NCBI GenBank assembly: GCA_963844885.1
Contig: CAWJQA010000018.1
Coordinates: 208,675-272,674, forward strand
Length of the DNA stretch: 64,000 nt
Source: an uncultured Holophagales bacterium
Lineage (GTDB): Bacteria; Acidobacteriota; Thermoanaerobaculia; Multivoradales; UBA5704
Direction: 5' to 3'
Position 1 is the first letter of the stretch, and each line of letters begins with the position of its first letter. Position numbers and translations under genes: made by a program. Of this stretch, positions 2,794 through 31,111 are shown piece by piece. Under the pieces are notes generated by a model. The model ran no database searches. It was not told where the DNA came from and worked only from the letters and a program-made list of their open reading frames with translations.

Positions 2794-4902
2794 ATGATTC
2801 CCGCCTCCAACGCCGGAGAGAGTCCTAGGCCGCCTGGGCGCAGCCTCGACCCCTTCGTCTTCCCATCCGAAACTCGTGGCCGGTTTTGGATGCTCGTGGT
2901 CGCAGCTCTGCTCATAGGCGTCAGTCTCACGCTTGTCTTGATGACAGGAATCTTCAGAACGACCTATGTGAACGACATGACAAGCTTTTCTGATCGCACG
3001 GCCGAAGTCATGGGGCACCGCGATCCGCGCGACCTCAGCCCTGATGAGCTCTTGACCGTGAGCAAGCAATTGCCCCGCCTTAATTGGGAAATGCTGCTCA
3101 AACGTATTCCACGGCTGATCATGCTCATCTTATCCGGTCTGTTCATCCCGGCCGTTGCGGCAGTGCTCTACATTCGCCATCCCCGTCGGATCAGGCGGCG
3201 TTATGAGAGCCGGACGCTGACCGCCTGGGAGGCTCCCACCGTCGTATCCTTCCTGCAGAGTTGCACCTCGGCCCTTCGTTTGCCTCCTCTGCGCCTGGAA
3301 GTCGCGGAGGCGAGGTCCAAGCTCGCCATGCCACAGACCTTCGGACGTCCAGGGAAAGAAGTATTGCTCCTGCATGGCGCCCCCGGTTTTCTGGAAGATA
3401 CATGGGGTGATACGGCCAAGACTGTCGTGCTCCACGAAGTTGGCCATATCGTCAATGGAGATGCCCAGGATCGTGAAAAGAGCCGAGCGCTCTGGATCGG
3501 CCTCGTAGCTTTTCTCGGCCTCACGTTCTGCGTGCTGTGGGGCTTTGCCCTGCTGGGAGTTTCTCTCGCGCGAGGCGCAGAGCAGGCAAGCATGACCTTT
3601 GCTGCCGCGAGTCTGGCTATCCTGAGGGCCACCGGCCTCTTCACGCCAATGTTGCTGCTTGTCTGGTTTATCTGGCTCGGGCTGGTCCGCATCCGCGAAT
3701 TCTATGCTGACTACCGGGTGGCGCTTTGGGGGCGTGGCGAATCATTGAGAAAACTGTTGAGAATGCAAGAGTCAAAGAGTCGCTGGTGGGAACGCTCCAA
3801 GTGGTGGGGAATGGTCTGGGAGCAATGGGGGCAACACAAGTGGTGGACATTGTGCGCCGGAGCGCTGGAACGGGCAGCAGAGCGGATCGAACCGATCTGG
3901 AGGAGCCATCCATCCTATCGATTGCGTCGATTGGTTTTGGCAGACCCTACTCAGCTTTTTCGGGTCCCGTCCGACCTGGCCCTCGTGACAGGATTCCTTC
4001 TGTCTCTCCTTATCACCAATTTGATCGCTCCAGCGATAGAGCTGGCGTCTCTACTGAACCTATTGACCGAAACATTCTTCTGGTGGATCGCAGGCCCACT
4101 TCTCGCCGCTCTGTCCTCTCCCTGGAAAGAATTGACTCTGATCCTGGGTAGAGTCATCGTCGTTGTGGGACCATTCCTGGTTTTCTGTTCCCTGCTACTG
4201 GGAATACCCGCGTATCTGGTCGCTCGTGCCATCGGCGTACAGGTGCAGCGAGAAGCCGTGGCCGATTTGGCAGAAGGAAATCGATGGGGATACCTGCGTT
4301 CGCTACGGCCGGCCATCCTTATGGCCTTAGGGGTTGAGGGGGGCTTCCTGCTCACACCGACCGGCGCGGTATTGGGGGGGCTCCATCTCGACGCAGGTAT
4401 GCGGCTGTCCTGGATCGCCGGCATGACTTTCCTTACCTGGCTGTGGCTGGCCTACATGCGGGCGCTGACTCGCTTCACCTTGGGAGTTCATGTCGGGCCC
4501 AGTTTTCCCGGCAAGCTGAGTCGCTTTGTCAATGCCTCGGCAGTAGCGCTGCTCATTGTTCTTTTCTGGCCTGCCGCGTTCACGCGCATGGCTTTTATTT
4601 TGAATTACCGGGAAATGCCTCGATGGGGCATACCGGAGAACGTCACCAACCAAGAATTTATCAATTATATCCATGTGACGGGAATCATGCTTGCGGCTTT
4701 CGCAGTCGCCGCATACGTCTTCTGGACGGGGGGCTGCCTGTTTTTCTGCGCTGCGCGGCTATGGCACATGAAAATCCGTTGCCATTCCTGTGGCGATCCG
4801 TTACCTCGCGGGTTTGCGGTCGGCCGCTCCTGTGCTTCCTGCGGAGAACCGCTCGCTGCCTGGATCTACAATCGACCTGATCCCACTGCGGATCTTTCCT
4901 GA
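2794..4902 (+). CDS. Polytopic M48-family (HtpX/Ste24-like) zinc metalloprotease with C-terminal CxxC..CxxC zinc ribbon (paralogue 1 of 3)
   Basis: 702-aa ORF. It carries HEVGH (HExxH) followed by REFYADYR (the M48 sRxxExxAD-type motif), many hydrophobic segments, and the C-terminus CHSCGDPLPRGFAVGRSCASCGEPLAAW. The N-terminal LDPFVFPSET motif is shared with the genes at 44215 and 46836. Confidence 0.8.
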   Translation: MIPASNAGESPRPPGRSLDPFVFPSETRGRFWMLVVAALLIGVSLTLVLMTGIFRTTYVNDMTSFSDRTAEVMGHRDPRDLSPDELLTVSKQLPRLNWEMLLKRIPRLIMLILSGLFIPAVAAVLYIRHPRRIRRRYESRTLTAWEAPTVVSFLQSCTSALRLPPLRLEVAEARSKLAMPQTFGRPGKEVLLLHGAPGFLEDTWGDTAKTVVLHEVGHIVNGDAQDREKSRALWIGLVAFLGLTFCVLWGFALLGVSLARGAEQASMTFAAASLAILRATGLFTPMLLLVWFIWLGLVRIREFYADYRVALWGRGESLRKLLRMQESKSRWWERSKWWGMVWEQWGQHKWWTLCAGALERAAERIEPIWRSHPSYRLRRLVLADPTQLFRVPSDLALVTGFLLSLLITNLIAPAIELASLLNLLTETFFWWIAGPLLAALSSPWKELTLILGRVIVVVGPFLVFCSLLLGIPAYLVARAIGVQVQREAVADLAEGNRWGYLRSLRPAILMALGVEGGFLLTPTGAVLGGLHLDAGMRLSWIAGMTFLTWLWLAYMRALTRFTLGVHVGPSFPGKLSRFVNASAVALLIVLFWPAAFTRMAFILNYREMPRWGIPENVTNQEFINYIHVTGIMLAAFAVAAYVFWTGGCLFFCAARLWHMKIRCHSCGDPLPRGFAVGRSCASCGEPLAAWIYNRPDPTADLS

Positions 4903-4912
4903 ACAGCGCGCC

Positions 4913-6274
4913 ATGAGCACCACAAAACTGATTGCGTTTCTTCTGGCGCTGACCAGCCTGGCAGGGATGCTGTTTGTCGCTTTCGCATCGGCCGCCATGC
5001 CCATTGTGCTCCGCGACCAGATCTCCGCGCCCCCTCCTCTGGACAAGGCGAGCCCTGGATGCATCGCCTTGTTCGCATTTGTCGCCTGGACCCCCTTGGT
5101 GGCAATACCCGGACTTGTGGGATTCGGTCTCTGGTTTTTTGCTATCCGCAAGCAGGAGGCTGCGGTAGAGCGAGAAGCCGCGACGTTTCCCGAAAAGGAA
5201 ATCGCATTCCAGGCCCGCCTCGACGGCCTCTCCCGACGGTTGCTGGAATGTGGAGGCGATGGCACCGCGCTTGCGCCTGAGATTCCCGTCTGGATACGGG
5301 ATCTCGACGATCTGCAGCAAAGCCGACTGCTCAGCGTGCTTGCCGAAACCAGTCTCAGCACGGCCAACGGGAACGTCGGTTTTCTTTCGAGCCCTGGAAT
5401 CGAGGCGGAAAGAAGTGCGCCGGGTTGTGCTAAGGCCCTCGGCATGGGATTGTTCGTTTTTGCCGGATTCTGTTGGCTCTGGGCCGCGCTCGCGATGTTT
5501 GTGCAGCTCAAAACCTCCCTGGCATCTGTACAAGGTATCGCGCCTAGCCCTGCGACTGCGGTCTACGGAACCTTCGGCTGTTTTGCTCCGGGCTTGGCGG
5601 CGATGATCGGCGGGATCGTGCTCCGTCGGCTGCTCCGGCGAGAAACGGAACGACAAAAACGACGCGAAGCCTTTCGCAATCATGCCCGCGAGATCATGCT
5701 GGAGAGATGTCTTGGTCGCCTGGCACGGCTTTTTTCACATGACAAGGATTCCGCTGCGGCCGAGGAGACTGCAGTCTCCCGGATAGCCCGGGCGGACGTA
5801 GTCTGCACTCTTGCGCAACTGGACGGGCCAGGAAAAGGGCGACTGATCGCCGGGCTTCATGCCGGCGGCTCTCCCTTCCCTTTCTCGCTCGGGCGGGTCG
5901 ACCTGCGGGGCGCCGTCTTCGTGGATGCCGATCTTTCGGGAGCGGATCTCGCCGGCGCAAATCTCTCCGGTTCCCATCTGAGTGGGACCTGCCTGGTCCG
6001 TGCAAACCTTCGCGGCAGTTGTCTCATCGGTGCCGACCTGAGGCGTACCGATGCCACGGAAGCCGTTTTCAGGCAGGCCGACCTCCGGAAGGCTCGGCTG
6101 CATCGGTGCATCCTGCGGCGGGCCGATCTGAGCGGAGCCGACCTGGAAGGAGCGAACCTCTGGCAGGCCGATCTCTCCGGGGCTGATCTCTCCGATGCGC
6201 GTGTGAACGACGCGCAACTACGAGGATCACGAACCGGACTGCTTCCGGATCCCCACGAGGAGGCATTGCCGTGA
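4913..6274 (+). CDS. Membrane protein with C-terminal pentapeptide-repeat domain
   Basis: Internal ATG at 4913 (MSTTKLIAFLLALTSLAG..), 10 nt after the upstream stop. There are several TM-like segments. The C-terminus is ADLSGADLAGANLSGSHLSGTCLVRANLRGSCLIGADLRRTD...ADLSGADLEGANLWQADLSGADLSDARV, which is the classic A(D/N)LxG pentapeptide repeat. Confidence 0.8.
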   Translation: MSTTKLIAFLLALTSLAGMLFVAFASAAMPIVLRDQISAPPPLDKASPGCIALFAFVAWTPLVAIPGLVGFGLWFFAIRKQEAAVEREAATFPEKEIAFQARLDGLSRRLLECGGDGTALAPEIPVWIRDLDDLQQSRLLSVLAETSLSTANGNVGFLSSPGIEAERSAPGCAKALGMGLFVFAGFCWLWAALAMFVQLKTSLASVQGIAPSPATAVYGTFGCFAPGLAAMIGGIVLRRLLRRETERQKRREAFRNHAREIMLERCLGRLARLFSHDKDSAAAEETAVSRIARADVVCTLAQLDGPGKGRLIAGLHAGGSPFPFSLGRVDLRGAVFVDADLSGADLAGANLSGSHLSGTCLVRANLRGSCLIGADLRRTDATEAVFRQADLRKARLHRCILRRADLSGADLEGANLWQADLSGADLSDARVNDAQLRGSRTGLLPDPHEEALP

Positions 6275-6549
6275 AGCCAGCCAGTCGAAATCTCTGGCTT
6301 GAGCTCGCTGCGCTCTGTCTGTTCCTCTTTAGCCTCGTTCTGTTCTTGCTCACAATGTTTTCCGTAGCGACCTTTTTCATGAGCGGTCTTTTGCCCGACG
6401 AGTCGTCGTCGGCGGGAGTCAAGGTGGTGGTCAGCATCGAGGAGGTGCTGGTGGCAGCTCTATCCACCCTTGTTCCCGGCCTGGCCCTGGTCGCGACGGC
6501 CTGGGGACTGCGCTCGCTCCTGGTCGACGAAAAGGAGCCCGACGCATGA
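6271..6549 (+). CDS. Small hypothetical membrane protein (about 3 TM segments)
   Basis: 92-aa ORF with a GTG start overlapping the upstream TGA. Its stop overlaps the next ATG. It has hydrophobic stretches LWLELAALCLFLFSLVLFLL and LVPGLALVATAW. Confidence 0.5.
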   Translation: MKPASRNLWLELAALCLFLFSLVLFLLTMFSVATFFMSGLLPDESSSAGVKVVVSIEEVLVAALSTLVPGLALVATAWGLRSLLVDEKEPDA

Positions 6550-8510
6550 ACGCGGCCGAGTTTCTTGCCGCTCCCTCCCATCTGAGAGCCCTCCGCGATG
6601 CCGTGCTCGCTGTCCAGCGCGAGGTGGCTCCCGAGGAGTGGGAGGTGACGACTGACTACGTAGGGCCGCTAATCGAGTTGGCTGCCCGCGACGAGTTGCC
6701 GACCACCGATACATCTGACGACGCGGGAGGTTTCGGCGCCGCAGACTGGATGCTTCTACCCATCATCTTTATGGTCATGGGCGTCCTGCAGGCTCGCCTG
6801 GAAACCGGAGACACCCGAGACATCACAGAGGCGGAGGTTCGTGGACTGGTGCGCCACAGTGGCTCGCTGCCGGCACGGAAGCTTGTCTCCGAGCTCACGA
6901 GGTCGCTTCAGAAAGCCTTTTCCCAGCACCTGGAAGCCTTCCTCGCGCCCGCTCCGAAGGGAGCCCGGGAAGAGCGCCATACGGACATTTCCTGCCCGCG
7001 CCAGGTCTGGAAAGAGACGCCGAGGTTCAACCTCGTCGTGCGCCTGACCTTGCGGCCGACTCCGTGGAGCGTCGCCCACCGGGCTCTGGACGTCAAAGCC
7101 AGCCAAACGATTCTCGTCTCACTGCAAGCGTCTGCGTTCGACATGCTGACCGCGGCATGCCAGGAAGTATTCCTCCCGCCGGGGCAGGATAGCGCGCCGA
7201 TCGTCTTCGATCTTCGTCCTCGCGAAGCGGGGCCTCAGCGCTTGATTCTGGATTTCTTCCAGGCTTCCCATCCTCTGGGGGCGGTCACCGTGCCCGTGGA
7301 GGTGACCGAGCAGCCTGTCCCGGAATCGCAGATCCAGGTGGCGTCATCTGCCTTCTCCCTCGAATTGGAGATTCCTCCGCCGGATCGGCTCCTGCTGATC
7401 TCCTGGGCCCCAGAGCGGTCGAGTCTGGCCATGAGCCTGATCGCAGGGGGCTCGCTCCAAAACTTCCCTCCTTGGCGGTCGGAGCGCGACCCTGCGCTCA
7501 TGGCCACCCATCTTTTCAATGATTTGAATGCCCTGACCGATGGCTGGGATCCGACGGCTCAGGCCATACGGGGGCAGCAGCGCAGCCTGTCCGCGCAGGC
7601 CATCGACGAAGAGCTGAAGGTAATCGGCCAGAACCTTTGGAGAATTCTGCCCGAGGGATTCCGTAGCCTCTACTCCCGGGAGAAGGAGCGTTGGCGGAAC
7701 AGCAGTCTGCTTATCTACTCCGACGAGCCTCACCTGCCCTGGGAGTTGGTCTGGCCGTACGGAGAGGGGTGGGAAGACGAGGGACCCTGGTGCTCGACGT
7801 TGTGTCTGAGCCGTTGGCTGCGCCAGGATGAGCTGGGGAGTGGCAACGCCGGTCCCCCTGGCCGTCTTCCTCTGACAGCTCTGGCCTGCATCGCCTCCAC
7901 GGACTTGGAGGCCGCTCAGCGGGAGAAGGCTTTCCTGCACGGCTTGCTCGAGCAGCGAGGGGTGCGGGATGTCAGTCCGTCCACTCCTACCCGCGAGGCG
8001 GTGCTGGGTCTGCTGAAATCGGAACCCTGCGACTGGATGCACGTGGCCGCGCATGGCAATTTTCACGCCGATGCCCCTGAGGAGCACTCCGCGCTCTGGT
8101 TGGACGGTCAAGCGATCCTCACCCCCCGGCACATCGTCGGCCCGGCGATCGAAGACCATCTGAGGCAGGCACGCCCGGTGTTTTTCTTCAACGCCTGCCA
8201 CGCCGGCCGTCTCGGTTGGAGTCTCACCCGGATCGGAGGCTGGGCGCAACGCCTGGTCTCCTGCGGCGCGGGCATGTTTCTCGGCCCCCTCTGGGCGGTG
8301 GAGGATGAAAGCGCCTTCCGGGTTGCACAGAGCTTCTACAGGCTCCTGCTCGAAGGGATGACCGTCGCCGAAGCGGCCCGGGAGACCCGCCGGACCGCTC
8401 GCGAGGCCGGGAGCCCGACCTGGCTCGCCTACAGCCTGTATGCCCACCCGAACGCGAAGGTTCTCCTGGTCGCTCCCGAGAACAAGGCTCCTGAGGTTCC
8501 AGGAGCCTAA
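6546..8510 (+). CDS. CHAT-domain (caspase-fold) protease, long form
   Basis: 654 aa. The C-terminal region has DWMHVAAHGNFH (catalytic-His context) and PVFFFNACHAGRLG (catalytic-Cys context) with the spacing typical of CHAT domains. The ATGA overlap couples it to the upstream gene. Confidence 0.8.
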   Translation: MNAAEFLAAPSHLRALRDAVLAVQREVAPEEWEVTTDYVGPLIELAARDELPTTDTSDDAGGFGAADWMLLPIIFMVMGVLQARLETGDTRDITEAEVRGLVRHSGSLPARKLVSELTRSLQKAFSQHLEAFLAPAPKGAREERHTDISCPRQVWKETPRFNLVVRLTLRPTPWSVAHRALDVKASQTILVSLQASAFDMLTAACQEVFLPPGQDSAPIVFDLRPREAGPQRLILDFFQASHPLGAVTVPVEVTEQPVPESQIQVASSAFSLELEIPPPDRLLLISWAPERSSLAMSLIAGGSLQNFPPWRSERDPALMATHLFNDLNALTDGWDPTAQAIRGQQRSLSAQAIDEELKVIGQNLWRILPEGFRSLYSREKERWRNSSLLIYSDEPHLPWELVWPYGEGWEDEGPWCSTLCLSRWLRQDELGSGNAGPPGRLPLTALACIASTDLEAAQREKAFLHGLLEQRGVRDVSPSTPTREAVLGLLKSEPCDWMHVAAHGNFHADAPEEHSALWLDGQAILTPRHIVGPAIEDHLRQARPVFFFNACHAGRLGWSLTRIGGWAQRLVSCGAGMFLGPLWAVEDESAFRVAQSFYRLLLEGMTVAEAARETRRTAREAGSPTWLAYSLYAHPNAKVLLVAPENKAPEVPGA

Positions 8511-8579
8511 CCAACTTCCCGGCTTTGGGGTCTCTATCGGGTGTCGACGCTCGTCCTGGGATGAGAGGAGGACTTTTCG

Positions 8580-10115
8580 ATGCGCCGCATCTCCGAAACC
8601 GCTGTCTTCGTGGCCCTGCTCGCGATTTGGGGCCTGACCCCGTTGCTGATCCTGGGGTTGCTGGTCTTTACTCCGAAGCCGCCCTTGACCTCTCAATTCT
8701 TGTTTTACGCGACGATCGCGTGGTCGGGCGCTTCCGTGGTGCTCTTCGGGATCCTGCTCCACCATGACGACTACTTCGAGAGGCACGGCGTCGAGAGCCT
8801 CATGGGGCTGACCTGCACTCTGGTGGTCGGAATTCCGGCAATGGCCTTCAGCTCCCTTCCTATGGTTGGCTCGCCGGCGGACTTCCTACAAAGCCTGAAT
8901 CCGGAGGGGAACAAGGTTGTCCTTACGGATCTCAAGGCCGATACCAGCAAAACCCTTTACCTGGTGGGAATCGACGTCTCGAAGAGCTTCGTCGAAGGCT
9001 CGTCCGATCCACGGTTGGACGAGGTCTTCACCGCGTTTGATTCGTTCTTCTACCCCATCACCCCGGATTCCTTCGCGGCATCCCAGGGCAACGAGGACGC
9101 GTTGCATGCCTATGTGTTTGCGAAAGACTATCAAGACGTGCTCACCATCAACGATGCCCTCGAACGCCGGCAGCAGATTCCCGAGCGCAGGAATCGCGTC
9201 AATGCCAGCTTTTCCAAGGTCGACCGGAGCACCACCAATCTAGTCGGGTTCTTGAACGATCGCGTCTGCGGCGAAATCGAAACGTTTGGGAAGAAATTCG
9301 ATGACATCAAGGTGATCATCTTCTCGGATTGGATCCAATCCCAGCCTAAAGAGGGGCGTGAGGCCTATCTCCAGGATCAGAAGAGCCGCCTCAAGACGTT
9401 TCAGGATTGTGCCAGGCACGGGAACGTCACATTCCTGGAGCTTCGGGCTCCTTCGCGGAAGAACAGCGAGCCGCAGGCGGACGACGCGGACGCGGATATC
9501 GGCAAGCAGCTCCGCTACAGCCTCGGAGAGGAACGGTGGCAGCACCTAGACCTCCAGGCCTACAACGAGGCGAGTGCCGAGGAGAGGCCGACGCTGCCGG
9601 CCCTTGTCTACTCCAACCACAATCCTTCCGAAAGCATCTATCTTAAGTATCTACCCGACCCCGGGTGGAAGCCCTTCACCTCCCGGATCTACCTTCCGGG
9701 CACCGAGCATTCGGAGAAGCTGTTCATCTCGTTCCGTCCCCTAACTCCAGACGCCTCGCCGGTACGCGTCTATCTCAAGCCCGGCAACAGCGACGAGGTC
9801 GTGATCGACATGAACGAGCAGGACAGGGCCACTCAGATCACGACCGAGAGCGGCCCTCTCCAACTCAGGCTTGCCCAGCGGACCCCCGGCTCTCGGGACG
9901 CGCACATTGAAATGCTCGTCGTGGCTCCTCGGACATCCACGGTGTACCGAATCCCCGTCGTGGTGTTGCCAGTGATGCGGGAGGACGCTCTCAAACTCCT
10001 AAAGCTCGTCATCTTCGCCATGCACCTTCTCCCGGTGGTCCTGGCCGTCAGGATTTTCCGCAGCCGGGCGCAGCGGCTTCGTGAGAAGGCCGCGCCCACC
10101 CCCACTGTTGTATGA
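8580..10115 (+). CDS. Multi-TM protein with vWA-like domain (MIDAS DxSxS = GIDVSKS) and C-terminal TM anchor
   Basis: 511 aa. The N-terminus has 3-4 hydrophobic segments. LYLVGIDVSKSF (DxSxS), TNLVGFL and VIIFSDW are spaced as in a vWA fold. The C-terminal hydrophobic segment is LKLVIFAMHLLPVVLAV. Confidence 0.65.
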   Translation: MRRISETAVFVALLAIWGLTPLLILGLLVFTPKPPLTSQFLFYATIAWSGASVVLFGILLHHDDYFERHGVESLMGLTCTLVVGIPAMAFSSLPMVGSPADFLQSLNPEGNKVVLTDLKADTSKTLYLVGIDVSKSFVEGSSDPRLDEVFTAFDSFFYPITPDSFAASQGNEDALHAYVFAKDYQDVLTINDALERRQQIPERRNRVNASFSKVDRSTTNLVGFLNDRVCGEIETFGKKFDDIKVIIFSDWIQSQPKEGREAYLQDQKSRLKTFQDCARHGNVTFLELRAPSRKNSEPQADDADADIGKQLRYSLGEERWQHLDLQAYNEASAEERPTLPALVYSNHNPSESIYLKYLPDPGWKPFTSRIYLPGTEHSEKLFISFRPLTPDASPVRVYLKPGNSDEVVIDMNEQDRATQITTESGPLQLRLAQRTPGSRDAHIEMLVVAPRTSTVYRIPVVVLPVMREDALKLLKLVIFAMHLLPVVLAVRIFRSRAQRLREKAAPTPTVV

Positions 10116-10136
10116 CTGAGCCCCGCAGGAGGACCC

Positions 10137-16926: not shown

Positions 16927-16953
16927 TGCCGGCCGAAGGCCGAGGAGCTTTGC

Positions 16954-22738: not shown

Positions 22739-22740
22739 CC

Positions 22741-25641
22741 ATGGACATGCTCGACCAGATCCTGCTCCCCTTCGGCTTTCTCGCGGCTGCCGCAGCCGTG
22801 GCATACGGCGCGGACCGCGCCGCGCTCGCCCGCCGCAGGGACGGCGACCGGGGCGATTTCTGGGCTCGGATCGTCCAGTGGCTCTGCCTGGGCCTCGGAG
22901 TCCCCCTGCTCCTCTCGGGCTTCCTGCAGACGCTCTTTCCGCGGTACTGGCGCCTCGGCCGGCACCTCCAGCTCGATCTGACAGGCGCCTTCGGCTGGAC
23001 GCTGGAAACTTGCTACCGTCTGGCGCTCTTCCTGCCCTTCGCGGCTTGGCTCGCATTGCTGGCCTTGGGCCTCGCGCGCAAGCCGGGGGACCGCGACGAG
23101 GCGCGTTGGCTCGCGGGAGGGATCGGCTTCGGCGGCTCGCGGCTCTGGGTCCTCCTGTGCGCGGCCCCCTTCGCCATCCTCCTGGTGCTGACGCCCGACC
23201 GTCTCGGAGGCGGCGACGGCGCCTACCCCGGCGCCTCCTGGGCGACGGCGGCGGTGCTCCTGCTCTCTCTGGCCGGCGTCGCCCTGAGCGCAGGACGGCC
23301 GGAAGCGGCGCCGTTGGCCCGTCCCGCCGGCTCGTCCCAAGCCACGGCCCCCCCGTCTCTCCAGCCCTGGCCGCAGGCGCTCGCTACGCACGGCGTGAGC
23401 GTCCGCGGAGTAACTTCGTGGTCCGCCAGCGGCCCCGCCCGCGCGCCCCGGCCGGTCGCCGGCAGCGACCTGGCCGAGCGGCTCCGCCACCTGGGAGCGG
23501 GCGAGGTGGCGCCGGAGTTGGTCGAAGCTGTGGGCGCTCTCCTGGAGAACGGGCCAAACGAGGGCGAGCACGGCCCGGCCCGGATCGTCTTCGCCCCCGA
23601 CCACTGCGGCCAGATCGAAACCGTGGCTGTGGCCGCCGCCATGCTGGAGCAGCGGTTCCACGCCACGACCCTCGTGGTCACCGCCCGCGACGCCGAGGCC
23701 CTGGCGGACCAGTTCCGCCTCTGGCTGCCGGCACCCGGCGCCGTCGGCGTCTTCGCCGGCACGGGCGAGCCTCCCTGGGGCGCGGTGGTGTGGATCGTCG
23801 AAGCCCAGATCCTCTCTGACCGGCTGCTCCCGATCCTCAAGGACCCCCTCCAGGCGCGGCGATTCGGCTTCATCGTCTGGTGGCACCTGGAGGCCTTCAG
23901 CGGCGTCTTCGCGGCCAATCTGTGGGCGATCTCGCGGCGGCTCCACCGCCTCCTCCAGGCGCTGGGGCGGCGCGACGTCCGCACGCTGGCCCTGGTCCGT
24001 AGCGCCCCGCACGGCGCGGCCCAGCTCGCCTCGTTCGTGCGGCGCCTCCTTCCGCACTCCTTTCCGGGCGGCGCGGAGGTCCACGTCAGCCAGCGATTCC
24101 CACGCCAGGTCTACCTTCACGCGCTGGAGTCCCACCAGGGCTACTTCGCCCGGGGGGAGGGACGGGATGTCCAGGAGCGCCACCGGCACCTCCCGCTGAT
24201 TGCCGCCCGGGTCTCCGCCGATGAGGGCTGGCCGACGGTCCTGGAGGTCCCGGCCGACGTGGCCAGGCCCGACATCGAAGCCGTTCTTCAGCTCGCGTCC
24301 GGAGGGTCGGTCCTCCGCGACCGCCTGGAGACCGACCCGAGCCGCGCCGGAGCGCGTCTCCTCGGTGTCGAGGCCGGCGATATCCTGTCGCTGCCGGAGA
24401 TCGTCAGCCAGGGTGGACGCTGCGCTCCCGCGGGCCTGCCGCATCACGTGGGGCTCTCGCTGCCGCCGAACCCGTACGCGGCCCACCTCGTCGACCGAAT
24501 GGCGGAAGCCGACGCCGCCTTCCCGACCTCCCGCCGCCTGGTCGCCGCCGAGGCGCTCTCCACTGTGGTCCGCCGGCACCTCCTCCTGGCCCTCAACGAG
24601 CTGCCCGACACCCGCAGCGGGCTGCTCAAGGACTTCCTCTGGAACGACGAGGTCATCAGAAGCACGCTGGACGAGATCGCCCGCGACGGCAAGCTCGTCC
24701 GCCGCGAGGTGCGCTTCCTCACCGAGGGCGGACGCCTGCGGATCGATCACGAGTACAGCAGCCAGCGCCCGCCCAACGACGAGCAGCGCCCGCTCGACAC
24801 GGTAGGTTCCTGGCTGGTTGACGTCCGCGAGCTGGCCGGCGGCTACGACGGCGGCGGCGTGCGTCTGCGCGTCGATCCCGAGCGGCTGACCATCCAGGCC
24901 TACCCGAACCGCGTGTTCCTCCAGGACGGCCGGCGCTACCGCGTGCGCGACTGGAGCTCGATCGAGTCCGTGCTCCGCAGCCGCTCGATCGCCTGCGACC
25001 GCGAGGACGTCCACAGTCTCACCTGGCGCATCCGCAACCCTCTCGTCTTCGGCATCGAGCCGTCGCGGGCGCCGAGCGGCGTGGGCCGTACCGGCAAGCT
25101 CCTCACCTGCTTCCCGGCCCGCCTCACCTACGAGGAGGAGGTGGTGGGAGCCCTGCGGTTGGCGCCGGACCTGGGCACCGGCCTGCCGCCGCGCACCGAG
25201 ACACTGCGCCTCGCGCGGCCGATCACCCAGAGCTTTTCCACCCGTGCCCTGATTCTGCGCTTCCCGGATGAAGAGGAGCACGTCGCTCTCGCGTCGCTCG
25301 CCCAAGCTCTGCGCCACGTCCTCCCCGTCCACCTCGGCGTCGACGAGGACGCGCTCGAGGTCGTGCCGCTAACCGGTGAGATCATCAGCGACCTGCCCAC
25401 CTACGGTCTCGCCGTGGTCGACCTCTACCCCGGTGGCATCGGTCTCGTGGACGAGATCGGCGACGACAGCCCCTTCCTGCTCCAACTCCTCGAATGGACC
25501 GACGGCTGGCTCAAGGCTTGTCCTTGCCAGAGCGACGCCGGCTGCGACCGCTGCCTGCGCTCGCCGGCCGCGCTGGCGGCCAACATCGATCAACCCCCAC
25601 TGCGGAAGGCGGCCCTCGGCCTCCTCCGTCAAGTCCTTTGA
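22741..25641 (+). CDS. Five-TM N-terminal domain fused to a helicase-like core with degenerate Walker A, and a C-terminal DUF1998 (MrfA/YprA-type Zn-binding) domain
   Basis: ATG 22741 lies 2 nt after the upstream stop (alternatives: GTG 22735, ATG 22717). Five hydrophobic segments lie in the first ~190 aa. ARIVFAPDHCGQIETVAV lacks GK[ST], and GFIVWWHLEAFSG sits at the DExH position. The C-terminus VVDLYPGGIGLVDE...CPCQSDAGCDRCL...NIDQPPLRKAA (Cys cluster 25519-25554) matches the DUF1998 pattern. Confidence 0.7.
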   Translation: MDMLDQILLPFGFLAAAAAVAYGADRAALARRRDGDRGDFWARIVQWLCLGLGVPLLLSGFLQTLFPRYWRLGRHLQLDLTGAFGWTLETCYRLALFLPFAAWLALLALGLARKPGDRDEARWLAGGIGFGGSRLWVLLCAAPFAILLVLTPDRLGGGDGAYPGASWATAAVLLLSLAGVALSAGRPEAAPLARPAGSSQATAPPSLQPWPQALATHGVSVRGVTSWSASGPARAPRPVAGSDLAERLRHLGAGEVAPELVEAVGALLENGPNEGEHGPARIVFAPDHCGQIETVAVAAAMLEQRFHATTLVVTARDAEALADQFRLWLPAPGAVGVFAGTGEPPWGAVVWIVEAQILSDRLLPILKDPLQARRFGFIVWWHLEAFSGVFAANLWAISRRLHRLLQALGRRDVRTLALVRSAPHGAAQLASFVRRLLPHSFPGGAEVHVSQRFPRQVYLHALESHQGYFARGEGRDVQERHRHLPLIAARVSADEGWPTVLEVPADVARPDIEAVLQLASGGSVLRDRLETDPSRAGARLLGVEAGDILSLPEIVSQGGRCAPAGLPHHVGLSLPPNPYAAHLVDRMAEADAAFPTSRRLVAAEALSTVVRRHLLLALNELPDTRSGLLKDFLWNDEVIRSTLDEIARDGKLVRREVRFLTEGGRLRIDHEYSSQRPPNDEQRPLDTVGSWLVDVRELAGGYDGGGVRLRVDPERLTIQAYPNRVFLQDGRRYRVRDWSSIESVLRSRSIACDREDVHSLTWRIRNPLVFGIEPSRAPSGVGRTGKLLTCFPARLTYEEEVVGALRLAPDLGTGLPPRTETLRLARPITQSFSTRALILRFPDEEEHVALASLAQALRHVLPVHLGVDEDALEVVPLTGEIISDLPTYGLAVVDLYPGGIGLVDEIGDDSPFLLQLLEWTDGWLKACPCQSDAGCDRCLRSPAALAANIDQPPLRKAALGLLRQVL

Positions 25642-25653
25642 GGACCGGACATC

Positions 25654-26889
25654 ATGTTCAGACCCAAGATCCACGGCGAGCTCGAAACCATCCACGAGCG
25701 CCTGCGCGGCTGGGAGACCTCGGTCCCGGCGCGCGCCCGTCGCTTCCACGCTCTGCGCGGAAGCCTGGAGGAGCAGGCCCGCAAGCTCCTGGGTCAGTTC
25801 GTGGTCTGGAGCGGGAACGAGACCCTCCAGCGGCTCAAGGACCGGACCGACCGGCTCAGCATGGTTGCCGAGCCGCTGGCGACCCTGATTCGGGACGCCG
25901 AACGCCTCGAACAGGAGATCAAGCTCCTCGCCCAGCGTGCCCGGGACGCCGGCAGTCCCGAGGTCGCTCGTGGCCTCGAGCAGCGCTGCCGCGACTGGTC
26001 CATCCTCATCGGCAGCCTGGGTACGGACTGCGACCGGGAGCCGGAGCTGCAGCGCGACCAGCTCCGCCTGCGCGGCACCGAGGAGGTGGTCCGCCTCCAC
26101 GACCAGGCGGTTTCCTGGCTCCAGGAGGCCCGGCGGGTGCTCTCCGACCTGGGCTCGGACCTCAAGGCCGCGCCCCTGGCCGCGGCCCTCCCGGACTTCG
26201 ACCTGCGTCTCCTGCGCGACGGCGCTACTCTGGAATGGGTTCAGGAGCTCAAAATGCTGGTCCAGCCGCTCAAGGATCTGGCCCGCCGCATCCAGGACCC
26301 TCCCCAGGAGCTCAAGACCGTGTCGCTGCTCCTCACCGACCTCCGCGGCTGGTCGCGGCAACTCAAGGAGAAGGAGGACCGCGTCGAGCAGCTCAAGCAG
26401 CGGCACCACTTCTACGCGGCGGACTGGAGCCCGGCCGGCCTCGACGACCTCGCCCGCGATGCCGAAACACTCCGCGACGAGCTAGTGGCCCAAGCCCGCG
26501 ATTTGCGCCGGCGAAAGCTCGAAGAGCTCAAGGACCGGGTCGAGGAGCTCATCCAGGCCTGCGGCCCACAGCCCGAGCTGGACGAGCGCATGTCCGAGGT
26601 CGAGACGCTGTCGTTCGACCGCTATCAACTTTTCCGCGAGTGGGCGGCCCGCTTCAAGCGTGTGGAAGACTACTTTCAGGCCATCGCCAACACCCATGAA
26701 GGTGCGCTCGAACGGCGCCTGTCCGAGCTCGTGGACGGGCTCCGCCAGGGCCTGGGAGCGCTCCGTTCCCAACCCCTTTCCGATCAGGTCCGCGGCGAGG
26801 CCGACGCTTTGAGCACGACCTGCGCGAGCTCGCCCAGATTTCCGGAGCCGAGCCGATGCTGCGCGCTCTCGGCCGGAGCGGCGAGATGA
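25654..26889 (+). CDS. Coiled-coil protein (hypothetical)
   Basis: 411 aa, rich in E/R/L/Q with long heptad-like stretches. The last ~25 aa (STTCASSPRFPEPSRCCALSAGAAR) look out of frame. The next gene's frame is already open from 26700, so the two ORFs may be one ~770-aa protein. Confidence 0.6.
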   Translation: MFRPKIHGELETIHERLRGWETSVPARARRFHALRGSLEEQARKLLGQFVVWSGNETLQRLKDRTDRLSMVAEPLATLIRDAERLEQEIKLLAQRARDAGSPEVARGLEQRCRDWSILIGSLGTDCDREPELQRDQLRLRGTEEVVRLHDQAVSWLQEARRVLSDLGSDLKAAPLAAALPDFDLRLLRDGATLEWVQELKMLVQPLKDLARRIQDPPQELKTVSLLLTDLRGWSRQLKEKEDRVEQLKQRHHFYAADWSPAGLDDLARDAETLRDELVAQARDLRRRKLEELKDRVEELIQACGPQPELDERMSEVETLSFDRYQLFREWAARFKRVEDYFQAIANTHEGALERRLSELVDGLRQGLGALRSQPLSDQVRGEADALSTTCASSPRFPEPSRCCALSAGAAR

Positions 26890-27962
26890 AGAGGACGCTC
26901 GACCGGCTCACGCGCCAGGCTCGGGAGGACTCCGAGGAGCTCTCGCGGCAGCAGGAAGCGCTGCGGGAAGCCTACCGGGATCTCCGTCTTCGGGCGAGTG
27001 AGGCCGGCCACACCCTTCCGGACCTCGCGGAGCGCATCGAGGATCTGTCGCGCGGCAAGGACGAGCCTTCGCTGGAGAGGGCGCGGCAACTCGCCGCCGA
27101 CCTTGCGGCCGAGCTGGACCGGCAGCGGCAGGAGGTGCTCCGGTGGTGCCGTTCGCTGCTCGACCGGCGGATGGCCGAAATCCGCGCCACCGCCGAGGCG
27201 CTGCGCCGCACCGGCACGCCCTTCACTCTTCCGGAAATCCCACTCCTGCAAGAAGACGCCAGCCCCGGCGACGCGATCCTGGCTCTGAAGCGCGCCGAAG
27301 AGGTCGGGGCCCTCCTTCTCGCGGCCGTGGAGACGGCGCTTCACTCCTGCGAAGAGCGGCGGCTCCAGGCCCAGGCCGCTCTCCAGCAGCTCCGTCCGGA
27401 GTCGCTCGGACCCGACGAGCGGGAGACCGTAGCTCAGCTTCTCCAGGAGCTGGACAAGGGATCCTGGGCCGACTCCGAAAACCTTGTCGAGCGCTTCGAG
27501 CTCCTGTCCCAGGTGGTCGAGATGTGTGACCTCCTCTTTCAGCGGCTGAACGAGGAAGAGCGCTCCGCCCGTTCCCGGCGCGAAGCCCTCCGCCGCCGGC
27601 TCCAACGCCACACCGAGAACCAGATGCGGCGTTTCTCTCCCGACCTCACCGACCGCGTCGCGGACCTGGTTTACGGCATCCCCGACGAGCCGGCCTCCTG
27701 GCGGGCTGTCCAGGAGCAGCTCGGCGTGGCGGAGCTCCTGCTCGCCCGCATCGAAACGCACGCGGCGCGCCTCGCGGCCGAAGAGCTCGACCGCGCCGCC
27801 GAAACCCTCCGCGGCCGGCGCGGCCGGTCCGCCACGCCCGAAGTCCGAACCCTTCTGGCCGATCTGGAGCGCTACTCCGACGAGGAGCTGCCGCCGGTGA
27901 TCCTGCGGACGCGCATTGTGAACGCGGCCCGGAAAGCCGCCCAAGGAGACCCCCGCCCATGA
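26886..27962 (+). CDS. Coiled-coil protein (hypothetical); possibly continuous with the preceding ORF
   Basis: ATG 26886 overlaps the upstream TGA (ATGA). 358 aa of E/R/L/A-rich helical sequence. Its stop overlaps the next ATG. Confidence 0.6.
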   Translation: MKRTLDRLTRQAREDSEELSRQQEALREAYRDLRLRASEAGHTLPDLAERIEDLSRGKDEPSLERARQLAADLAAELDRQRQEVLRWCRSLLDRRMAEIRATAEALRRTGTPFTLPEIPLLQEDASPGDAILALKRAEEVGALLLAAVETALHSCEERRLQAQAALQQLRPESLGPDERETVAQLLQELDKGSWADSENLVERFELLSQVVEMCDLLFQRLNEEERSARSRREALRRRLQRHTENQMRRFSPDLTDRVADLVYGIPDEPASWRAVQEQLGVAELLLARIETHAARLAAEELDRAAETLRGRRGRSATPEVRTLLADLERYSDEELPPVILRTRIVNAARKAAQGDPRP

Positions 27963-29641
27963 CACCCGGCAGCCCGCTCCCGGCCTGGCCCGCACTCGAC
28001 GCGGGCGACCATCCTTTTCCTCAACGTCTCGGCTACGAGCGCGCGGTCTGGGGCAAAGTCCACGCCTCTCCCGGAGACTATCGATGGATCGCGGCCTCGC
28101 CGTCCTTCGCCCCCGCCCTCCAGCAGATCGAGCGCGAATTGCAGCTCGGCAGCGAGGACGTGCCAGAGCGGGCCACCCACTGGCGCAACACCGGCGAGCA
28201 CTGCCTCGCCATGGTCTGCTACCCCAGCCGCGCCGCCGACGCCGCCGGCCGTTCCAACTTCCTGGAAAAGCAGATCCTTGCCTGGAGGCGCCCCGCCGAG
28301 GTTCCGGCGGTGCTCGGAGCCCTCCTCCTCTTGCCGCGGATCGCGCAGGCGGATGACGACATCTGGTGGGACAAGCCCGCGCAGAGCCGCTGGTCGGAGG
28401 ACGACACCCTTTCCATCCCTCCGGAGGACCATCCGCCCGTCCCCGTTTCACCGGATACGCTCGCCGAAGCCGTCGCCCGGGGGACGGCCGAGCTGCGTGC
28501 AGCCCTCCACGAAGACTCCCTCACCGATCTTTACGCCCACATCCTGGCCGGTCATCGCGCCGTGCCCCTGGCCGGCCTCGCCGCGCCGCTCGGCCCTGAA
28601 GCCGTGGCCGCCCTCCTGCTGCCGCTCCCGCGCGCCCTCGCCGACGGCTACTCCGTCGCCGGCTGGCTCCCTTCGCGGCGGTTGCCCGACCTGGCCGAGC
28701 TGCAGCGGTGCTGGGGCGTCGTGCTCGGAGGCGCCACTCTGCCGCCGCCACCGCCCGTGTCGCCGTCTCCCGAACAGCGCCGCCAGGCGCAGACGCTGGC
28801 CCAGGCCATCCTGGCCAACGACCCGGCCATCCTCACCGGCGCGCCGACCCCTGCCGCCGCCCCGGTGGCTGTTTCCGGAGGCCCTTCCCCGATCCGCCTC
28901 GCCATGTGGGGCCCCTCTTCCGCCGGCAAGACGGCGCTCCTCGCCAAGCTCTACCTGGAAGACGACGAAGAGATCGACTGGGAGGTCTTCCCGACCGCGA
29001 CCTCGCTCCAATTCATCCAGGACATGCGCGCCCACATGCGGACGAGCAACGCCTTCCCGCCGGCCACTACCGGCTCCGTCGAACAGATCGAATATCAGTT
29101 CCGCCACCGCTTGGCCGGAACCGAGGCCTCCCTCCGCCTGGAAGACCGGGCCGGCAGCGAGTCCGAGAAACTCACCGACGCGATCCGCGTGCAGCTAGGC
29201 GAGGCGCACGGGCTCGTCCTCGTCTTCGATCCCCTGGCCGAAGGGTCGTCTCTGGAAAGCCAGGTCTGGCGTACCCTCGAGCACGTCCACGTGGCGAGCG
29301 GCCGGCGCGTCCACAAAGACAGCCGCCCCATCGCCGTCTGTGTCTCCAAGGCGGACGTCCTCATCGAGACGATCGACGACCTGAGGAGCGCGCGGGAAGA
29401 CCCCGACGGCTTCGTCCGCCGGCGTGATCGTATGGGCCTGGTCAAGGCTCTGGACCGGTTCTGCAGCAACTACCGGCTATTTCCCGTCTCCGCCGCCGGC
29501 ATCCGGGTGCGCCACGGTGTGATCGAGCCCGTGGTCTTCTACGATGAAGGCCTGAGCCCCCGCCTCTGTCCCGGAGGCCGTCCTCTCAACGTCAAGGCGC
29601 CTTTCGCCTGGCTTCTGGAACAAGTGACGAGTCGATCGTGA
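27959..29641 (+). CDS. Ras-like (TRAFAC-class) P-loop GTPase with a ~310-aa unknown N-terminal domain
   Basis: 560 aa. G1 is AMWGPSSAGKTALL (28910-28933), G3 is LEDRAGSE, G4 is CVSKADV and G5 is FPVSAAG. The N-domain (ERAVWGKVHASPGDYRWIAAS...) is repeated in the next locus. Confidence 0.75.
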   Translation: MTPGSPLPAWPALDAGDHPFPQRLGYERAVWGKVHASPGDYRWIAASPSFAPALQQIERELQLGSEDVPERATHWRNTGEHCLAMVCYPSRAADAAGRSNFLEKQILAWRRPAEVPAVLGALLLLPRIAQADDDIWWDKPAQSRWSEDDTLSIPPEDHPPVPVSPDTLAEAVARGTAELRAALHEDSLTDLYAHILAGHRAVPLAGLAAPLGPEAVAALLLPLPRALADGYSVAGWLPSRRLPDLAELQRCWGVVLGGATLPPPPPVSPSPEQRRQAQTLAQAILANDPAILTGAPTPAAAPVAVSGGPSPIRLAMWGPSSAGKTALLAKLYLEDDEEIDWEVFPTATSLQFIQDMRAHMRTSNAFPPATTGSVEQIEYQFRHRLAGTEASLRLEDRAGSESEKLTDAIRVQLGEAHGLVLVFDPLAEGSSLESQVWRTLEHVHVASGRRVHKDSRPIAVCVSKADVLIETIDDLRSAREDPDGFVRRRDRMGLVKALDRFCSNYRLFPVSAAGIRVRHGVIEPVVFYDEGLSPRLCPGGRPLNVKAPFAWLLEQVTSRS

Positions 29642-31111
29642 AAAATCTTTCGCAATGGCCTTCCCTCGCCGCCGGCACAGGAGCCGGCTGGCCCGACAAG
29701 CTTCATTACTCCCGCGCCGTCTGGGGAAAAGTCCACGGCGCCCGCTCGGACTATCGCTGGATCGCCCTCAGCGCCGGTTTAGTCCCCGAGCGGGACCTTC
29801 ACGAGCAGCTCAATGTGGGCGTCGAGGATGAACCGGAGTCGACATTGCTCTGGCGGAACCTCAGCGGACGCTGCCATGCCGTGAGCTGTTACTCCGAGCC
29901 GGGCCACGGATGTCTCGGGTCGAGGAAATTTCCTGGAAAAGCAGGTGCTTTCCTGGGACCGAAGTGACCTCCCGGCAGCCCTGGGAGCCCTGCTTCTCCT
30001 TCCGCACGCCGCCGGCCTCACCGACAGCCATCTGGTGGAGCCGCTACGAAGGCCAGCCCTGGACGGAGGAGGGCTTCTCCTTGCCGATCGAGGCTTCGGA
30101 CCATGAGCCGCTCCCCGTCAATCAAGAGACCTCGCCTCGACCATGAAAATGGGACTTGCCGAGATCCGGAGCAACTTCGGGATCGAGCCTCTCCAGACCC
30201 TTTATTCCGCTCTTCTTGCCGGCAGCAAACCAGCCTTTCTGACTGGCGCGCCCAGCCTCTGTCGGCCGCAGCGCTGGCGGCGCTCCTCCTTCCTCTCCCG
30301 CGCGAGCATGCCGACAGCCTTTCTCTGGCGGCCTGGGTCCCGTCACGCCGCGTCTCGGAGAAACAGGCAAAGCTCTGGGATGTCATCGTCCTTCCTCCCG
30401 GACGGGCTGATCTGGGGGTGAAGCCGGCCGTGGTGGATCGTCATTGCCGGGACGAGGGACGGCGTCTGGCTGAGTACTCCTTGGCCTGGGCTCTGAGCCT
30501 CTGGCGGGTCTGCCGCCGCAGTCCTTCGGGCCGGTGGAGGAACTCCCTTCGCCACCGAGAAAGCCGGAGCCGACCGCGGTGCCTTCCGGGCGGCCAGTCC
30601 CGGGACACACGATCGAGCTGAGGCCCCAGCTGCCCGGGGCGGTCGAAGCTTTGAAAAATCTCCACGCTTTCGCCATGCGCGACGGATCGCCGCTGGCTCG
30701 ATGCCGATGCGCTGGCGGGTTGAAGCCCGGCCAGATCCAGCTCCGGGATTCTCCGATCCCGGCTGGCTCCAAACTCTCCGATAAGCAGCGCCCCACCTGG
30801 GTGGACAAACACAGTGGGCCGTCAAGCTCGACCTGCTGCGCTGCGCCGCCCTGGTCCTCCACCCCCATCCTAACGCCGCCATGCCGAAGACCGTAAGATT
30901 CCGCCGCTCCATTTCGCCTATCGCTGTCCCGACCAATCTCGACCTTTTGGGCAACCTCGGACCGACGAAGCTCCAAGAGGCTCTGGAACAGAGTCTGAAC
31001 CTAGGGCGCAATCCGCGGACAAAAAGAATGAGGGAGCTTGCTCGTGCGCTGGAGAAACCGAGACGAAACGGCGGGATCTGGATATCAGGAGATGGTCGAG
31101 CGACACCTTGA
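29638..31111 (+). pseudogene. Decayed paralogue of the preceding gene (N-domain recognisable, P-loop lost), needing at least 4 frame changes
   Basis: GTG 29638 overlaps the upstream TGA. SRAVWGKVHGARSDYRWIALS..LLWRNLSGRCHAVSCY parallels ERAVWGKVHASPGDYRWIAAS..THWRNTGEHCLAMVCY. Homology continues in other frames: GNFLEKQVLSW..ALGALLLLP at ~29920-30000, and AALAALLLPLPREHADSLSLAAWVPSRR at ~30265-30350. At the expected P-loop position (~30612) the sequence reads IELRPQLPGAVEAL. The last open frame ends at 31111. Confidence 0.55.

Follow-up and report, generated by a model that had tools for sequence, protein, structure and literature searches.

A Tubulin_2, vWA and DO-GTPase gene cluster shared by Acidobacteriota and Gammaproteobacteria

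Relation to described tubulin, vWA and GTPase systems

Operons that join an FtsZl1-type member of the tubulin superfamily to vWA proteins and a diverged GTPase have been described and were predicted to encode a "membrane remodelling system" (Makarova & Koonin 2010, PMC2875224). DO-GTPase systems containing tubulin, coiled-coil and membrane vWA genes were in turn predicted to be conflict systems, with a tubulin theme confined to Firmicutes and Actinobacteria (Kaur, Burroughs, Iyer & Aravind 2020, PMC7159879). Here we analysed a gene cluster of this kind located in a stretch of 64,000 nucleotides (nt) from an uncultured Holophagales bacterium (contig CAWJQA010000018.1, positions 208,675 to 272,674), to which we refer as the window. 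The cluster belongs with both the FtsZl1(Tubulin_2)-vWA-GTPase neighbourhoods and the DO-GTPase "GTPase-centric" systems, as a variant from Acidobacteriota and Gammaproteobacteria whose architecture and phyletic range appear in neither the 2010 nor the 2020 paper. The original prediction for this DNA, made from the sequence alone, took some 16 plus-strand genes at 2794-31111 for one undescribed, envelope-spanning unit. "Undescribed" does not hold, since the core association was published in 2010 and DO-GTPase-tubulin-vWA systems in 2020.

The conserved unit consists of genes g6 to g15 (10137-31111; numbered as in Table 1), as observed across 40 related loci of Acidobacteriota and Gammaproteobacteria, and it is followed by a convergent cluster that extends to 39.7 kb. 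The bounds originally proposed were thus wrong on both sides, and the frameshifts within the unit had been overlooked. A scan of 185,579 GTDB species representatives with two exact tubulin peptide patterns returned 31 loci, which is a lower bound, and metagenomic contigs were considered as well. Throughout these genomes and contigs the gene order is vWA-vWA-vWA-slot-tubulin-partner-predicted dead helicase-coiled coil-GTPase-N-domain protein. Both g10 and g11 were present in all loci with at least 5.5 kb of downstream flank (25/25), the GTPase gene in all those with at least 9.5 kb (20/20), and at least two vWA paralogs in 23 of the 25 loci with at least 7 kb of upstream flank. Co-occurrence of these genes in other genomes is therefore strong, and because the g6-g14 order recurs there, the array goes beyond a chance assembly of neighbours.

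Orthologs of g9 were found in Thermoanaerobaculia, in other Acidobacteriota and in Gammaproteobacteria (Methylovulum, Methylumidiphilus, Competibacteraceae, Chromatiaceae and Thiosymbion), and the tubulin protein is 41-86% identical across loci, with a similarity of 41-73% between the two phyla. The cluster is rare and horizontally transferred. Its cultured carriers are Methylovulum psychrotolerans (CP022129.1, L002) and Lamprocystis purpurea DSM 4197 (NZ_KB902491). In the former the core spans about 3781831-3804224 and contains the SIR2-TPR gene, and in the g14-like gene, of 481 aa, tblastn detected the N-domain only. With nine to ten collinear core genes, two phyla and two cultured carriers the variant is unusually well defined, although the window copy is not its best representative.

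The system is modular, and three separable modules were observed: A (g6-g8, g9, g10 and g11), B (g12/13, g14 and g15) and C (the convergent cluster). Module A stands alone in loci L003 and L004. Module B stands alone in a locus of Lamprocystis purpurea (L043; KB902362.1, 7668-13281), a genome that also carries the full system (L017), and modules B and C occur together without a tubulin gene in L042. The tubulin gene is separated from the last vWA gene by a fixed slot whose contents differ by genome. It holds a SIR2_2 plus TPR gene in Methylovulum and Methylumidiphilus (loci L002, from Methylovulum, and L016), GmrSD_N in Lamprocystis (L017), a protease of the transglutaminase type that has an Ig domain in Thiosymbion (L031), and a fourth vWA gene in L023 (E 3.6e-4), matched in L022 by an open reading frame (ORF) of ~770 aa that has no Pfam match; an NMT1-like protein and a transposase were also found in this position. 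Upstream of the core, other Thermoanaerobaculia carry non-orthologous CHAT genes, extra vWA genes or a dynamin-family GTPase gene (L005, L021, L009, L010 and L020), the dynamin-family gene of L020 (261-2879) lying directly 5' of the vWA genes. Resolvase and ISL3 transposase genes are found beside the copies of some relatives.

With the FtsZl1 operons of PMC2875224 the cluster shares a Tubulin_2 protein that adjoins membrane vWA proteins with an intact metal ion-dependent adhesion site (MIDAS), and a diverged P-loop GTPase that carries the Walker motifs A and B plus [NST]KxD, which read GxxxxGKT, EDRAG and SKAD in g14. Many components of both have transmembrane (TM) segments, and in both the function is deduced from genome context alone. 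The differences are equally clear: the tables of that paper contain no helicase, DUF1998 or Acidobacteria entries, and the OmpA-family protein and the Ser/Thr kinase that are frequent, though not universal, there gave no Pfam match among g1-g15. Further components of the present cluster are a degenerate TM-hairpin protein with a predicted tubulin fold, an MrfA-like helicase that is putatively dead, the three receptor paralogs and, in convergent orientation, a module of five genes.

The GAP1-N2-type DO-GTPase systems (PMC7159879) resemble the cluster in having a TRAFAC GTPase of the DO-GTPase family, one or more tubulin-domain proteins (two in the Firmicutes version) that are extended by coiled coils or helices, membrane vWA proteins with a beta-rich domain, variable effector-like genes, and a conserved partner that is either fused to the GTPase or encoded directly 3' of it. 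In our cluster, however, an unrelated protein with the N-domain takes the place of the downstream partner, there is one DO-GTPase domain rather than two paralogs, g14 bears no Zn ribbon, and the hosts are Acidobacteriota and Gammaproteobacteria. Conversely, PMC7159879 mentions no dead helicase/MZB component, no convergent module and no Acidobacteria.

Other systems are similar in single parts. The helicase-like protein g11 is homologous to MrfA at motif II and the MZB domain and weakly matches DruE at the MZB domain, which relates it to the DUF1998 helicases of MrfA/YprA, DISARM and Druantia; it differs from the MrfA/YprA type in lacking DExH and an apparent Walker A Lys and in having five added TM helices, and from these systems generally in that the Cys4 site is present in about half of the orthologs and no methylase, PLD or SNF2 partner accompanies it. 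As in BtubA/BtubB and alpha/beta-tubulin, g9 and g10 are adjacent, translationally coupled genes for tubulin-fold proteins (in g10 by prediction), one of which has the full GTPase signature. Yet g10 has no GGTGSG loop and no profile similarity to g9, a g9-g10 heterodimer is only hypothetical, and the two proteins carry helical extensions of 500-700 aa, one of them membrane-inserted. The vWA-MoxR ternary systems likewise combine vWA proteins, an NTPase and accessory genes of the protease or NADase type. Here the vWA proteins are predicted periplasmic receptors, not cytoplasmic co-chaperones, and a MoxR-type AAA+ gene, already noted as missing in the original prediction, was found neither by Pfam in any array gene nor in the gene tables of the related loci. 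When the core and convergent proteins were compared with NCBIfam, no model fitted the cluster.

Components of the conserved unit

The predicted topology of g6-g8 comprises a signal peptide, a periplasmic vWA domain with a MIDAS, a beta-rich region of ~400 aa, one TM segment and a cytoplasmic tail of ~110-130 aa. The three proteins are full-length paralogs, as determined with hhalign (probability 100 and E 2e-131 for g6 and g8; probability 99.2-99.5 for g7 with g6 or g8). The DxSxS motif is invariant in the orthologs of g6 (23/23) and g8 (26/26), and in those of g7 its D and final S are kept in 26/26 and its middle S in 25/26, the remaining one having T. Best conserved in g6 and g8 is the cytoplasmic tail, above the periplasmic beta-rich regions, which are the least-conserved segment of g7 and g8; these regions have no family assignment. 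A protein with fast-evolving FNIII repeats is a component of the GAP1-N2-type DO-GTPase systems, and no FN3 match to Pfam was obtained in the array. Four MIDAS-bearing vWA proteins had been proposed, and these three were supported. We rejected g5 as the fourth, since it gave no Pfam match and no profile match to vWA families and has the DxSxS string only.

The tubulin-like protein g9 matches Tubulin_2 over the whole model (PF13809, positions 1-356 of 356, E 1.1e-42, on the frame-corrected protein), and every ortholog carries PF13809. In the window the reading frame changes within the gene, which is thereby split into the ORFs 16954-17373 and 17250-20246. A CCCGGG near 17277-17280 has lost one G, and joining the frames at 17277 restores LDRGYQPRPGFKPGAGQIR, an exact match to the ortholog consensus. 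The orthologs are intact, measure 1092-1100 aa and reach 86% identity, and the mean identity of the tubulin domain is 73%. Thirteen orthologs share, without variation, T1 (GxGGxGS), GAGQIR, GGTGSG and ELDNYEK, the last of these motifs being probably T7-like. The prediction of a ~1,100-aa protein with the tubulin GGTGSG signature was correct as to the family and the motif, but not as to a single ORF in this copy.

Downstream of g9, the AlphaFold2 model of g10 (predicted local distance difference test score, pLDDT, 86; predicted template modelling score 0.76) supports a role as a degenerate tubulin partner. Foldseek matches to its first ~310 residues are almost exclusively tubulins, gamma-tubulin, FtsZ, CetZ and BtubB (probability 1.0, E 1e-3 to 2e-2), with target-normalised TM-scores of 0.31-0.40 over ~310 residues, which are modest and refer to a predicted structure. 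The g10 family keeps GxGxxG at the T1 position, and the GGTGSG position reads A-R-P-T-G-P-E, so that the "degenerate partner" of the original prediction agrees with both the fold and the lost loop. Profile-profile comparison of g9 with g10 (hhalign) found no similarity (probability 1%), and g10 is thus tubulin-like only at the level of the predicted fold. No Pfam family matched g10. A search of 1.84 billion proteins with the g10 profile delimited a closed family, which comprises 172 clusters when grouped at 50% identity, and found no bridge to Tubulin_2 proteins. Residues ~311-831 of g10 gave weak Foldseek matches (probability 0.4-0.8) to SmhB and AhlB of the tripartite alpha-pore-forming toxins and to the dynamin-like Mgm1 and IniA.

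The next protein, g11, was described beforehand as a 5-TM helicase-like DUF1998 protein, and the present data agree with this. It matches Pfam MZB (PF09369, E 2.3e-7), and a profile built from 28 orthologs also finds Bacillus subtilis MrfA/YprA (6znp; E 3.9e-11), the similarity being divided between the region of motif II and the MZB domain. At motif II the DExH has become W-[DH]-L-[HE], aligned by the profile to the DELH of MrfA, and a candidate Walker A, tentatively placed, reads G-Q-x-E, without Lys. To judge from these motifs, g11 is probably a helicase without catalytic activity. Of the 28 orthologs, 15-21 keep the Cys4 zinc site of the MZB domain (residues 935-946 of g11 as encoded in the window), and zinc binding is for this reason no conserved requirement in the family.

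The coiled-coil gene g12/13, a single gene of 764-786 aa in relatives, is also broken in the window. Residues 1-386 of the 769-aa ortholog in the nearest relative (L036) correspond to 25654-26811 in frame 1 and residues 386-769 to 26808-27959 in frame 3, and at the break the window DNA reads TTGAG where the relatives have TTGGAG. Programmed frameshifting in g9 and g12/13 was ruled out, as the orthologs of both are single intact ORFs.

A Ras-like GTPase had been predicted at g14, and this was confirmed by fold and family. Its AlphaFold2 model (pLDDT 88) retrieves Rab, Ras, Ran, Arl and MglA with Foldseek (E 1e-6, TM-score 0.6-0.7), and Pfam DO-GTPase2 (PF19993) matches it at 29.3 bits (E 8.5e-7; cut-off 27). 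All 60 homologs match DO-GTPase2 (best E 9.7e-14), 38 of the 60 also match PF19975, and G1 GxxxxGKT, the Walker B EDRAG, SKAD and SAAG are conserved in these sequences. In relatives the g14-type GTPase is either fused to the N-domain or free-standing and followed by an N-domain protein.

The following gene, g15, encodes no DO-GTPase domain and occupies the position that GAP1 has in DO-GTPase systems. It is intact in L036, L037, L039, L040, L041, L042 and L043; in the window, tblastn with the intact L039 and L040 proteins runs through frames 1, 2, 1, 3 and 2 across 29638-31030. The window g15 is 38-66% identical to its L039 ortholog, and g14 is 83% identical to the ortholog P0225 on the same contig; g15 thus appears to evolve faster than g14. 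Pfam holds GAP1 models. No Pfam family reached E <= 1 with the g14 N-domain or g15, whether the query came from the window, from six full-length g15-type proteins or from the 60 g14 homologs.

The five convergent genes adjoin g15 in the same order and orientation in L039, L040, L041 (Gammaproteobacteria) and L042, and their products in L039 measure 367, 550, 1082, 386 and at least 549 aa. None of these proteins was assigned to a family by Pfam, PADLOC or NCBIfam. The 386-aa protein, the product of the fourth gene, has P-loop GTPase-like motifs (GGKxVGKS, DGSGE and TQAD) that are colinear with those of g14, and its profile similarity to g14 is not significant (probability 0.8). Sequence or profile searches of the PDB with g9, g10, g14 and the convergent 1082- and 386-aa proteins returned nothing significant.

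Table 1. Genes of the plus-strand array and the convergent cluster in the window (positions are those of the window, approximate for the five single convergent genes; E and bit scores are from Pfam)
Feature	Position	Strand	Description
g1	2794..4902	+	multi-TM M48-like metalloprotease (HExxH) with C-terminal Zn ribbon; Peptidase_M48 18.5 bits
g2	4913..6274	+	4-TM protein with C-terminal pentapeptide repeats; Pentapeptide E 6.5e-37
g3	6271..6549	+	92-aa two-TM protein; GTGA overlap; no family match
g4	6546..8510	+	CHAT (caspase-like) protease; CHAT E 1.1e-14
g5	8580..10115	+	N- and C-terminal TM segments, DxSxS string; no Pfam match
g6	10137..12296	+	vWA receptor paralog 1; ~110-aa cytoplasmic tail
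g7	12293..14578	+	vWA receptor paralog 2; architecture as g6
g8	14575..16926	+	vWA receptor paralog 3; architecture as g6; VWA_2 E 5.4e-8, VWA E 7.7e-6
g9	16954..20246	+	Tubulin_2 (FtsZl1-type) GTPase with ~700-aa helical C-terminal extension; split by 1-nt deletion
g10	20243..22738	+	predicted tubulin-fold pseudo-GTPase (residues ~10-310), helical region with TM hairpin (488-542), C-terminal domain
g11	22717..25641	+	five N-terminal TM helices, MrfA/YprA-like helicase core, MZB (DUF1998) domain
g12/13	25654..27962	+	one ~770-aa coiled-coil protein; split by 1-nt deletion near 26808-26811
g14	27959..29641	+	~300-aa N-domain (no known fold family) fused to DO-GTPase2-type Ras-like GTPase
g15	29638..31111	+	multiply frameshifted copy of a 487-520-aa protein; first ~260-290 residues paralogous to g14 N-domain
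Convergent five-gene cluster	31121..39744	-	no family assignment; travels with the tubulin system; several genes frameshifted
Convergent gene 1	~31121-32213	-	
Convergent gene 2	32321-33688	-	
Convergent gene 3	33713-36878	-	
Convergent gene 4	36921-38078	-	
Convergent gene 5	38121-39744	-	

Candidate functions and state of the window copy

The function that we consider most likely, with chances that we judge to be about even, is that of an envelope-sensing conflict or immunity system. We favour a conflict role because of the patchy spread across phyla, the variable SIR2, protease and nuclease genes within the operon, the mobile elements at its flanks and the homology of the GTPase to DO-GTPase systems, which are predicted conflict systems. 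An AbiEii toxin gene near the array in the window is a further defence-type neighbour. In such a system the three vWA ectodomains would together form a periplasmic ligand-binding receptor, and the ligand would report an insult to the envelope, such as phage attachment or injection, or a toxin. The cytoplasmic tails of the receptors would then relay the signal to the membrane-anchored tubulin and pseudo-tubulin pair, with the DO-GTPase and its fast-evolving N-domain partner acting as a threshold switch. A g9-g10 heteromer would assemble with GTP at the membrane and remodel or permeabilise it; alternatively or additionally, lineage-specific effectors (the SIR2-TPR protein, the transglutaminase-type protease or CHAT) may be activated.

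Several observations weigh against a conflict role. The periplasmic ligand, the contact between tails and tubulin, and polymerisation are elements that we infer, and the GmrSD and transposase genes may have entered the slot independently and not be effectors. GAP1 (N, M and C domains) and FNIII components, by which the GAP1-N2-type systems are defined, were not detected here, nor was an N-terminal Zn ribbon. All cluster and convergent proteins gave only noise-level matches in PADLOC-DB v2.0 (2023), namely DruE (in the MZB region), LmuB and mad8; tblastn with g10 found no copy in plasmid and phage collections, and we found in the literature no experimental work on any member of this cluster type. 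Finally, the loci L003, L042 and L043 lie among housekeeping genes, which would also fit a housekeeping or developmental machine of membrane remodelling or cytoskeletal type. In that case the tubulin pair would shape, repair or vesiculate the inner membrane, the vWA proteins would be periplasmic scaffolds and the small GTPase a regulator of polarity or assembly, with no part in conflict. We regard this as rather unlikely, even though FtsZl1, vWA and GTPase operons were so interpreted in PMC2875224, g10 has a TM hairpin within long helical bundles and weak fold matches to Mgm1, IniA and pore-forming toxins, L020 carries a dynamin-family GTPase gene 5' of the cluster, and the tubulin domain is conserved to a very high degree. 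Against a remodelling machine speak a very patchy occurrence (at least 31 loci among the species representatives), the level of cross-phylum similarity, variable SIR2, GmrSD and protease genes inside the operon and mobile elements flanking it, and modules that occur apart and copies that are apparently lost or decaying. The conflict and remodelling functions can be merged, as membrane repair or abortive membrane disruption upon envelope attack. A further, unlikely possibility is an integrin-like "outside-in" machine, in which the vWA MIDAS ectodomains would act through their tails on a membrane-anchored heterodimeric tubulin gated by the Ras-like GTPase, and the polymer together with the dead helicase would be an immune effector that breaches or remodels the inner membrane. 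If true, this would be a tubulin-based mechanism of immunity or abortive infection, the first of its kind, and would define a new class of heteromeric bacterial tubulin.

Very improbable, in our judgement, is that all of the ~16 genes of 2794-31111 encode one envelope-spanning machine from a single operon, with the M48 and CHAT proteases as effectors and a tubulin in the place of MoxR. The tight same-strand spacing includes g1-g5, and a scan of 1-12000 revealed no terminator-like or promoter signal above shuffled background, also between g5 and g6. CHAT and extra vWA genes recur 5' of the core in L005, L021, L009 and L010, and a g5 homolog (50% identical) is kept immediately 5' of g6 in the nearest relative, L036. 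Against such a machine, g1-g3 have no counterparts in the 40 related loci, and for g4 nothing beyond weak CHAT matches was obtained there, in L005 and L032. The composition also changes, from GC ~0.60 and third-position GC (GC3) of 0.74-0.78 in g1-g5 to GC ~0.70 and GC3 of 0.82-0.91 in the core genes. At 44779-47998 a second M48-Zn-ribbon and CHAT pair is not associated with a tubulin gene, which suggests that the proteases are a module of their own, and the conserved neighbourhood runs in the other direction, through the convergent cluster. Nor does "envelope-spanning" describe the array, in which only inner-membrane and periplasmic parts were predicted and no outer-membrane component was found.

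To our knowledge, few branches of the tubulin superfamily lack a known function, and FtsZl1/Tubulin_2 is among them. Its clusters were predicted to serve membrane remodelling in 2010 or conflict in 2020, and we found no experimental test of either prediction in the literature. With g10, the putatively dead helicase, the three vWA receptors and the fixed slot, the choice between cytoskeleton and immunity becomes directly testable, and g9-g10 is a candidate heteromeric bacterial tubulin for structural work.

Three core genes of the window copy (g9, g12/13 and g15) are frameshifted, and the copy may be either inactive or mis-assembled. Relative to intact orthologs, the frameshift sites lie at 17277-17280, 26808-26811, 29638-31111, ~31868, 33713-36878 and ~39203-39233, and are thus concentrated in 17-40 kb; in comparison with L039, the 31-40 kb genes show several breaks as well, and at least three of the five convergent genes contain frame changes. 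That these changes are real, and that the copy is a decaying, non-functional relic, is possible, although we lean to the contrary. The single-base deletions in g9 and g12/13, the three to four frame changes in g15 together with its low identity beside that of g14, the changes in the convergent genes and the position of the disrupted region within a low-GC island would all fit a relic. On the other hand, the frameshifts, which are single-base changes, are scattered across 22 kb or more, and the same pattern is found in L042, a 5.9-Mb contig with a long-read-style name, both of which fit the indel errors of an error-prone assembly. Furthermore, 13.6 kb of core sequence, in six other genes, is undamaged and high in GC3, and the low identity of g15 is not decay by itself because this gene evolves fast in every lineage. 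Among the related sequences, L001 is 100% identical to the window and extends over none of the frameshift sites, and L038, which has an intact tubulin (P0121), is 86% identical to the window in DNA and hence not the same strain.

Array layout, upstream genes and flanking DNA

According to the ORF listing and translation, the plus-strand array runs from 2794 to ~31111 without interruption, with intergenic distances of -22 to +69 nt. The uninterrupted run was correctly predicted, but the number of genes (16) was not: since g9, g12/13 and g15 are split by frameshifts, the array has 14 genes, three of them disrupted. All eight ATGA or GTGA tetranucleotides listed as 4-nt overlaps are present (6271, 6546, 12293, 14575, 20243, 26886, 27959 and 29638) and seven are true stop/start overlaps; the one at 26886 is no gene junction because it lies inside the single gene g12/13.

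The genes g1-g5 appear to be variable accessories or, alternatively, a protease module in their own right. The M48 assignment of g1 is below the Pfam cut-off for Peptidase_M48 (20.3 bits) when g1 is taken by itself, and it is backed by a paralog at 44779-46914 that exceeds the cut-off (27.4 bits) and shares 26% identity with g1 across 516 aa (E 4e-28). The pentapeptide-repeat membrane protein (g2) and the CHAT protease (g4) were recovered as proposed, by their Pfam matches and, for g2, its TM segments. CHAT genes unrelated to g4 lie upstream of the core in L005 (E 1e-68) and L021 (E 3e-66). In Thermoanaerobaculia, CHAT proteases recur upstream of the core as accessories without being orthologous. 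Weak matches to g5 (25%) also exist in L008 and, on the opposite strand, in L037.

Beyond the conserved unit, the g1 paralog at 44779-46914 (minus strand) is a 711-aa protein of M48-TM-Zn-ribbon architecture, divergently paired with a second CHAT protease at 46958-47998 (plus strand). The M48-Zn-ribbon and CHAT pairing thus occurs twice in the window and may be a self-standing two-protease module. Approximately 1.6 kb 5' of the array lies a gene for a nucleotidyltransferase toxin of the AbiEii family (91-1218, plus strand; Pfam E 2.3e-30), a family of type IV toxin-antitoxin and abortive infection systems. An Acido-Lenti-1 RNA motif (Rfam RF01687; 1628-1673, minus strand) scored 38.8 bits against a gathering score of 37 and is consistent with an acidobacterial origin of the DNA; together with the closest homologs it underlies the assignment of the window to Thermoanaerobaculia.

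The composition of the window is mosaic, with GC of ~0.60 at 2-10 kb and 31-50 kb and ~0.70 in the 10-30 kb core. An acyl-CoA dehydrogenase gene is apparently split at the edge of the low-GC island by an insertion or rearrangement, its N domain being encoded at 48058-48543 and its middle and C domains at 50616-51485 (both plus strand). The ~2 kb between the two pieces contain a putative endonuclease of the Uma2 family (49000-49680, minus strand) and a helix-turn-helix regulator (49786-50250, plus strand). From 50 to 64 kb the GC is 0.65-0.72 and housekeeping genes are present, among them acyl-CoA dehydrogenase and MeaB.

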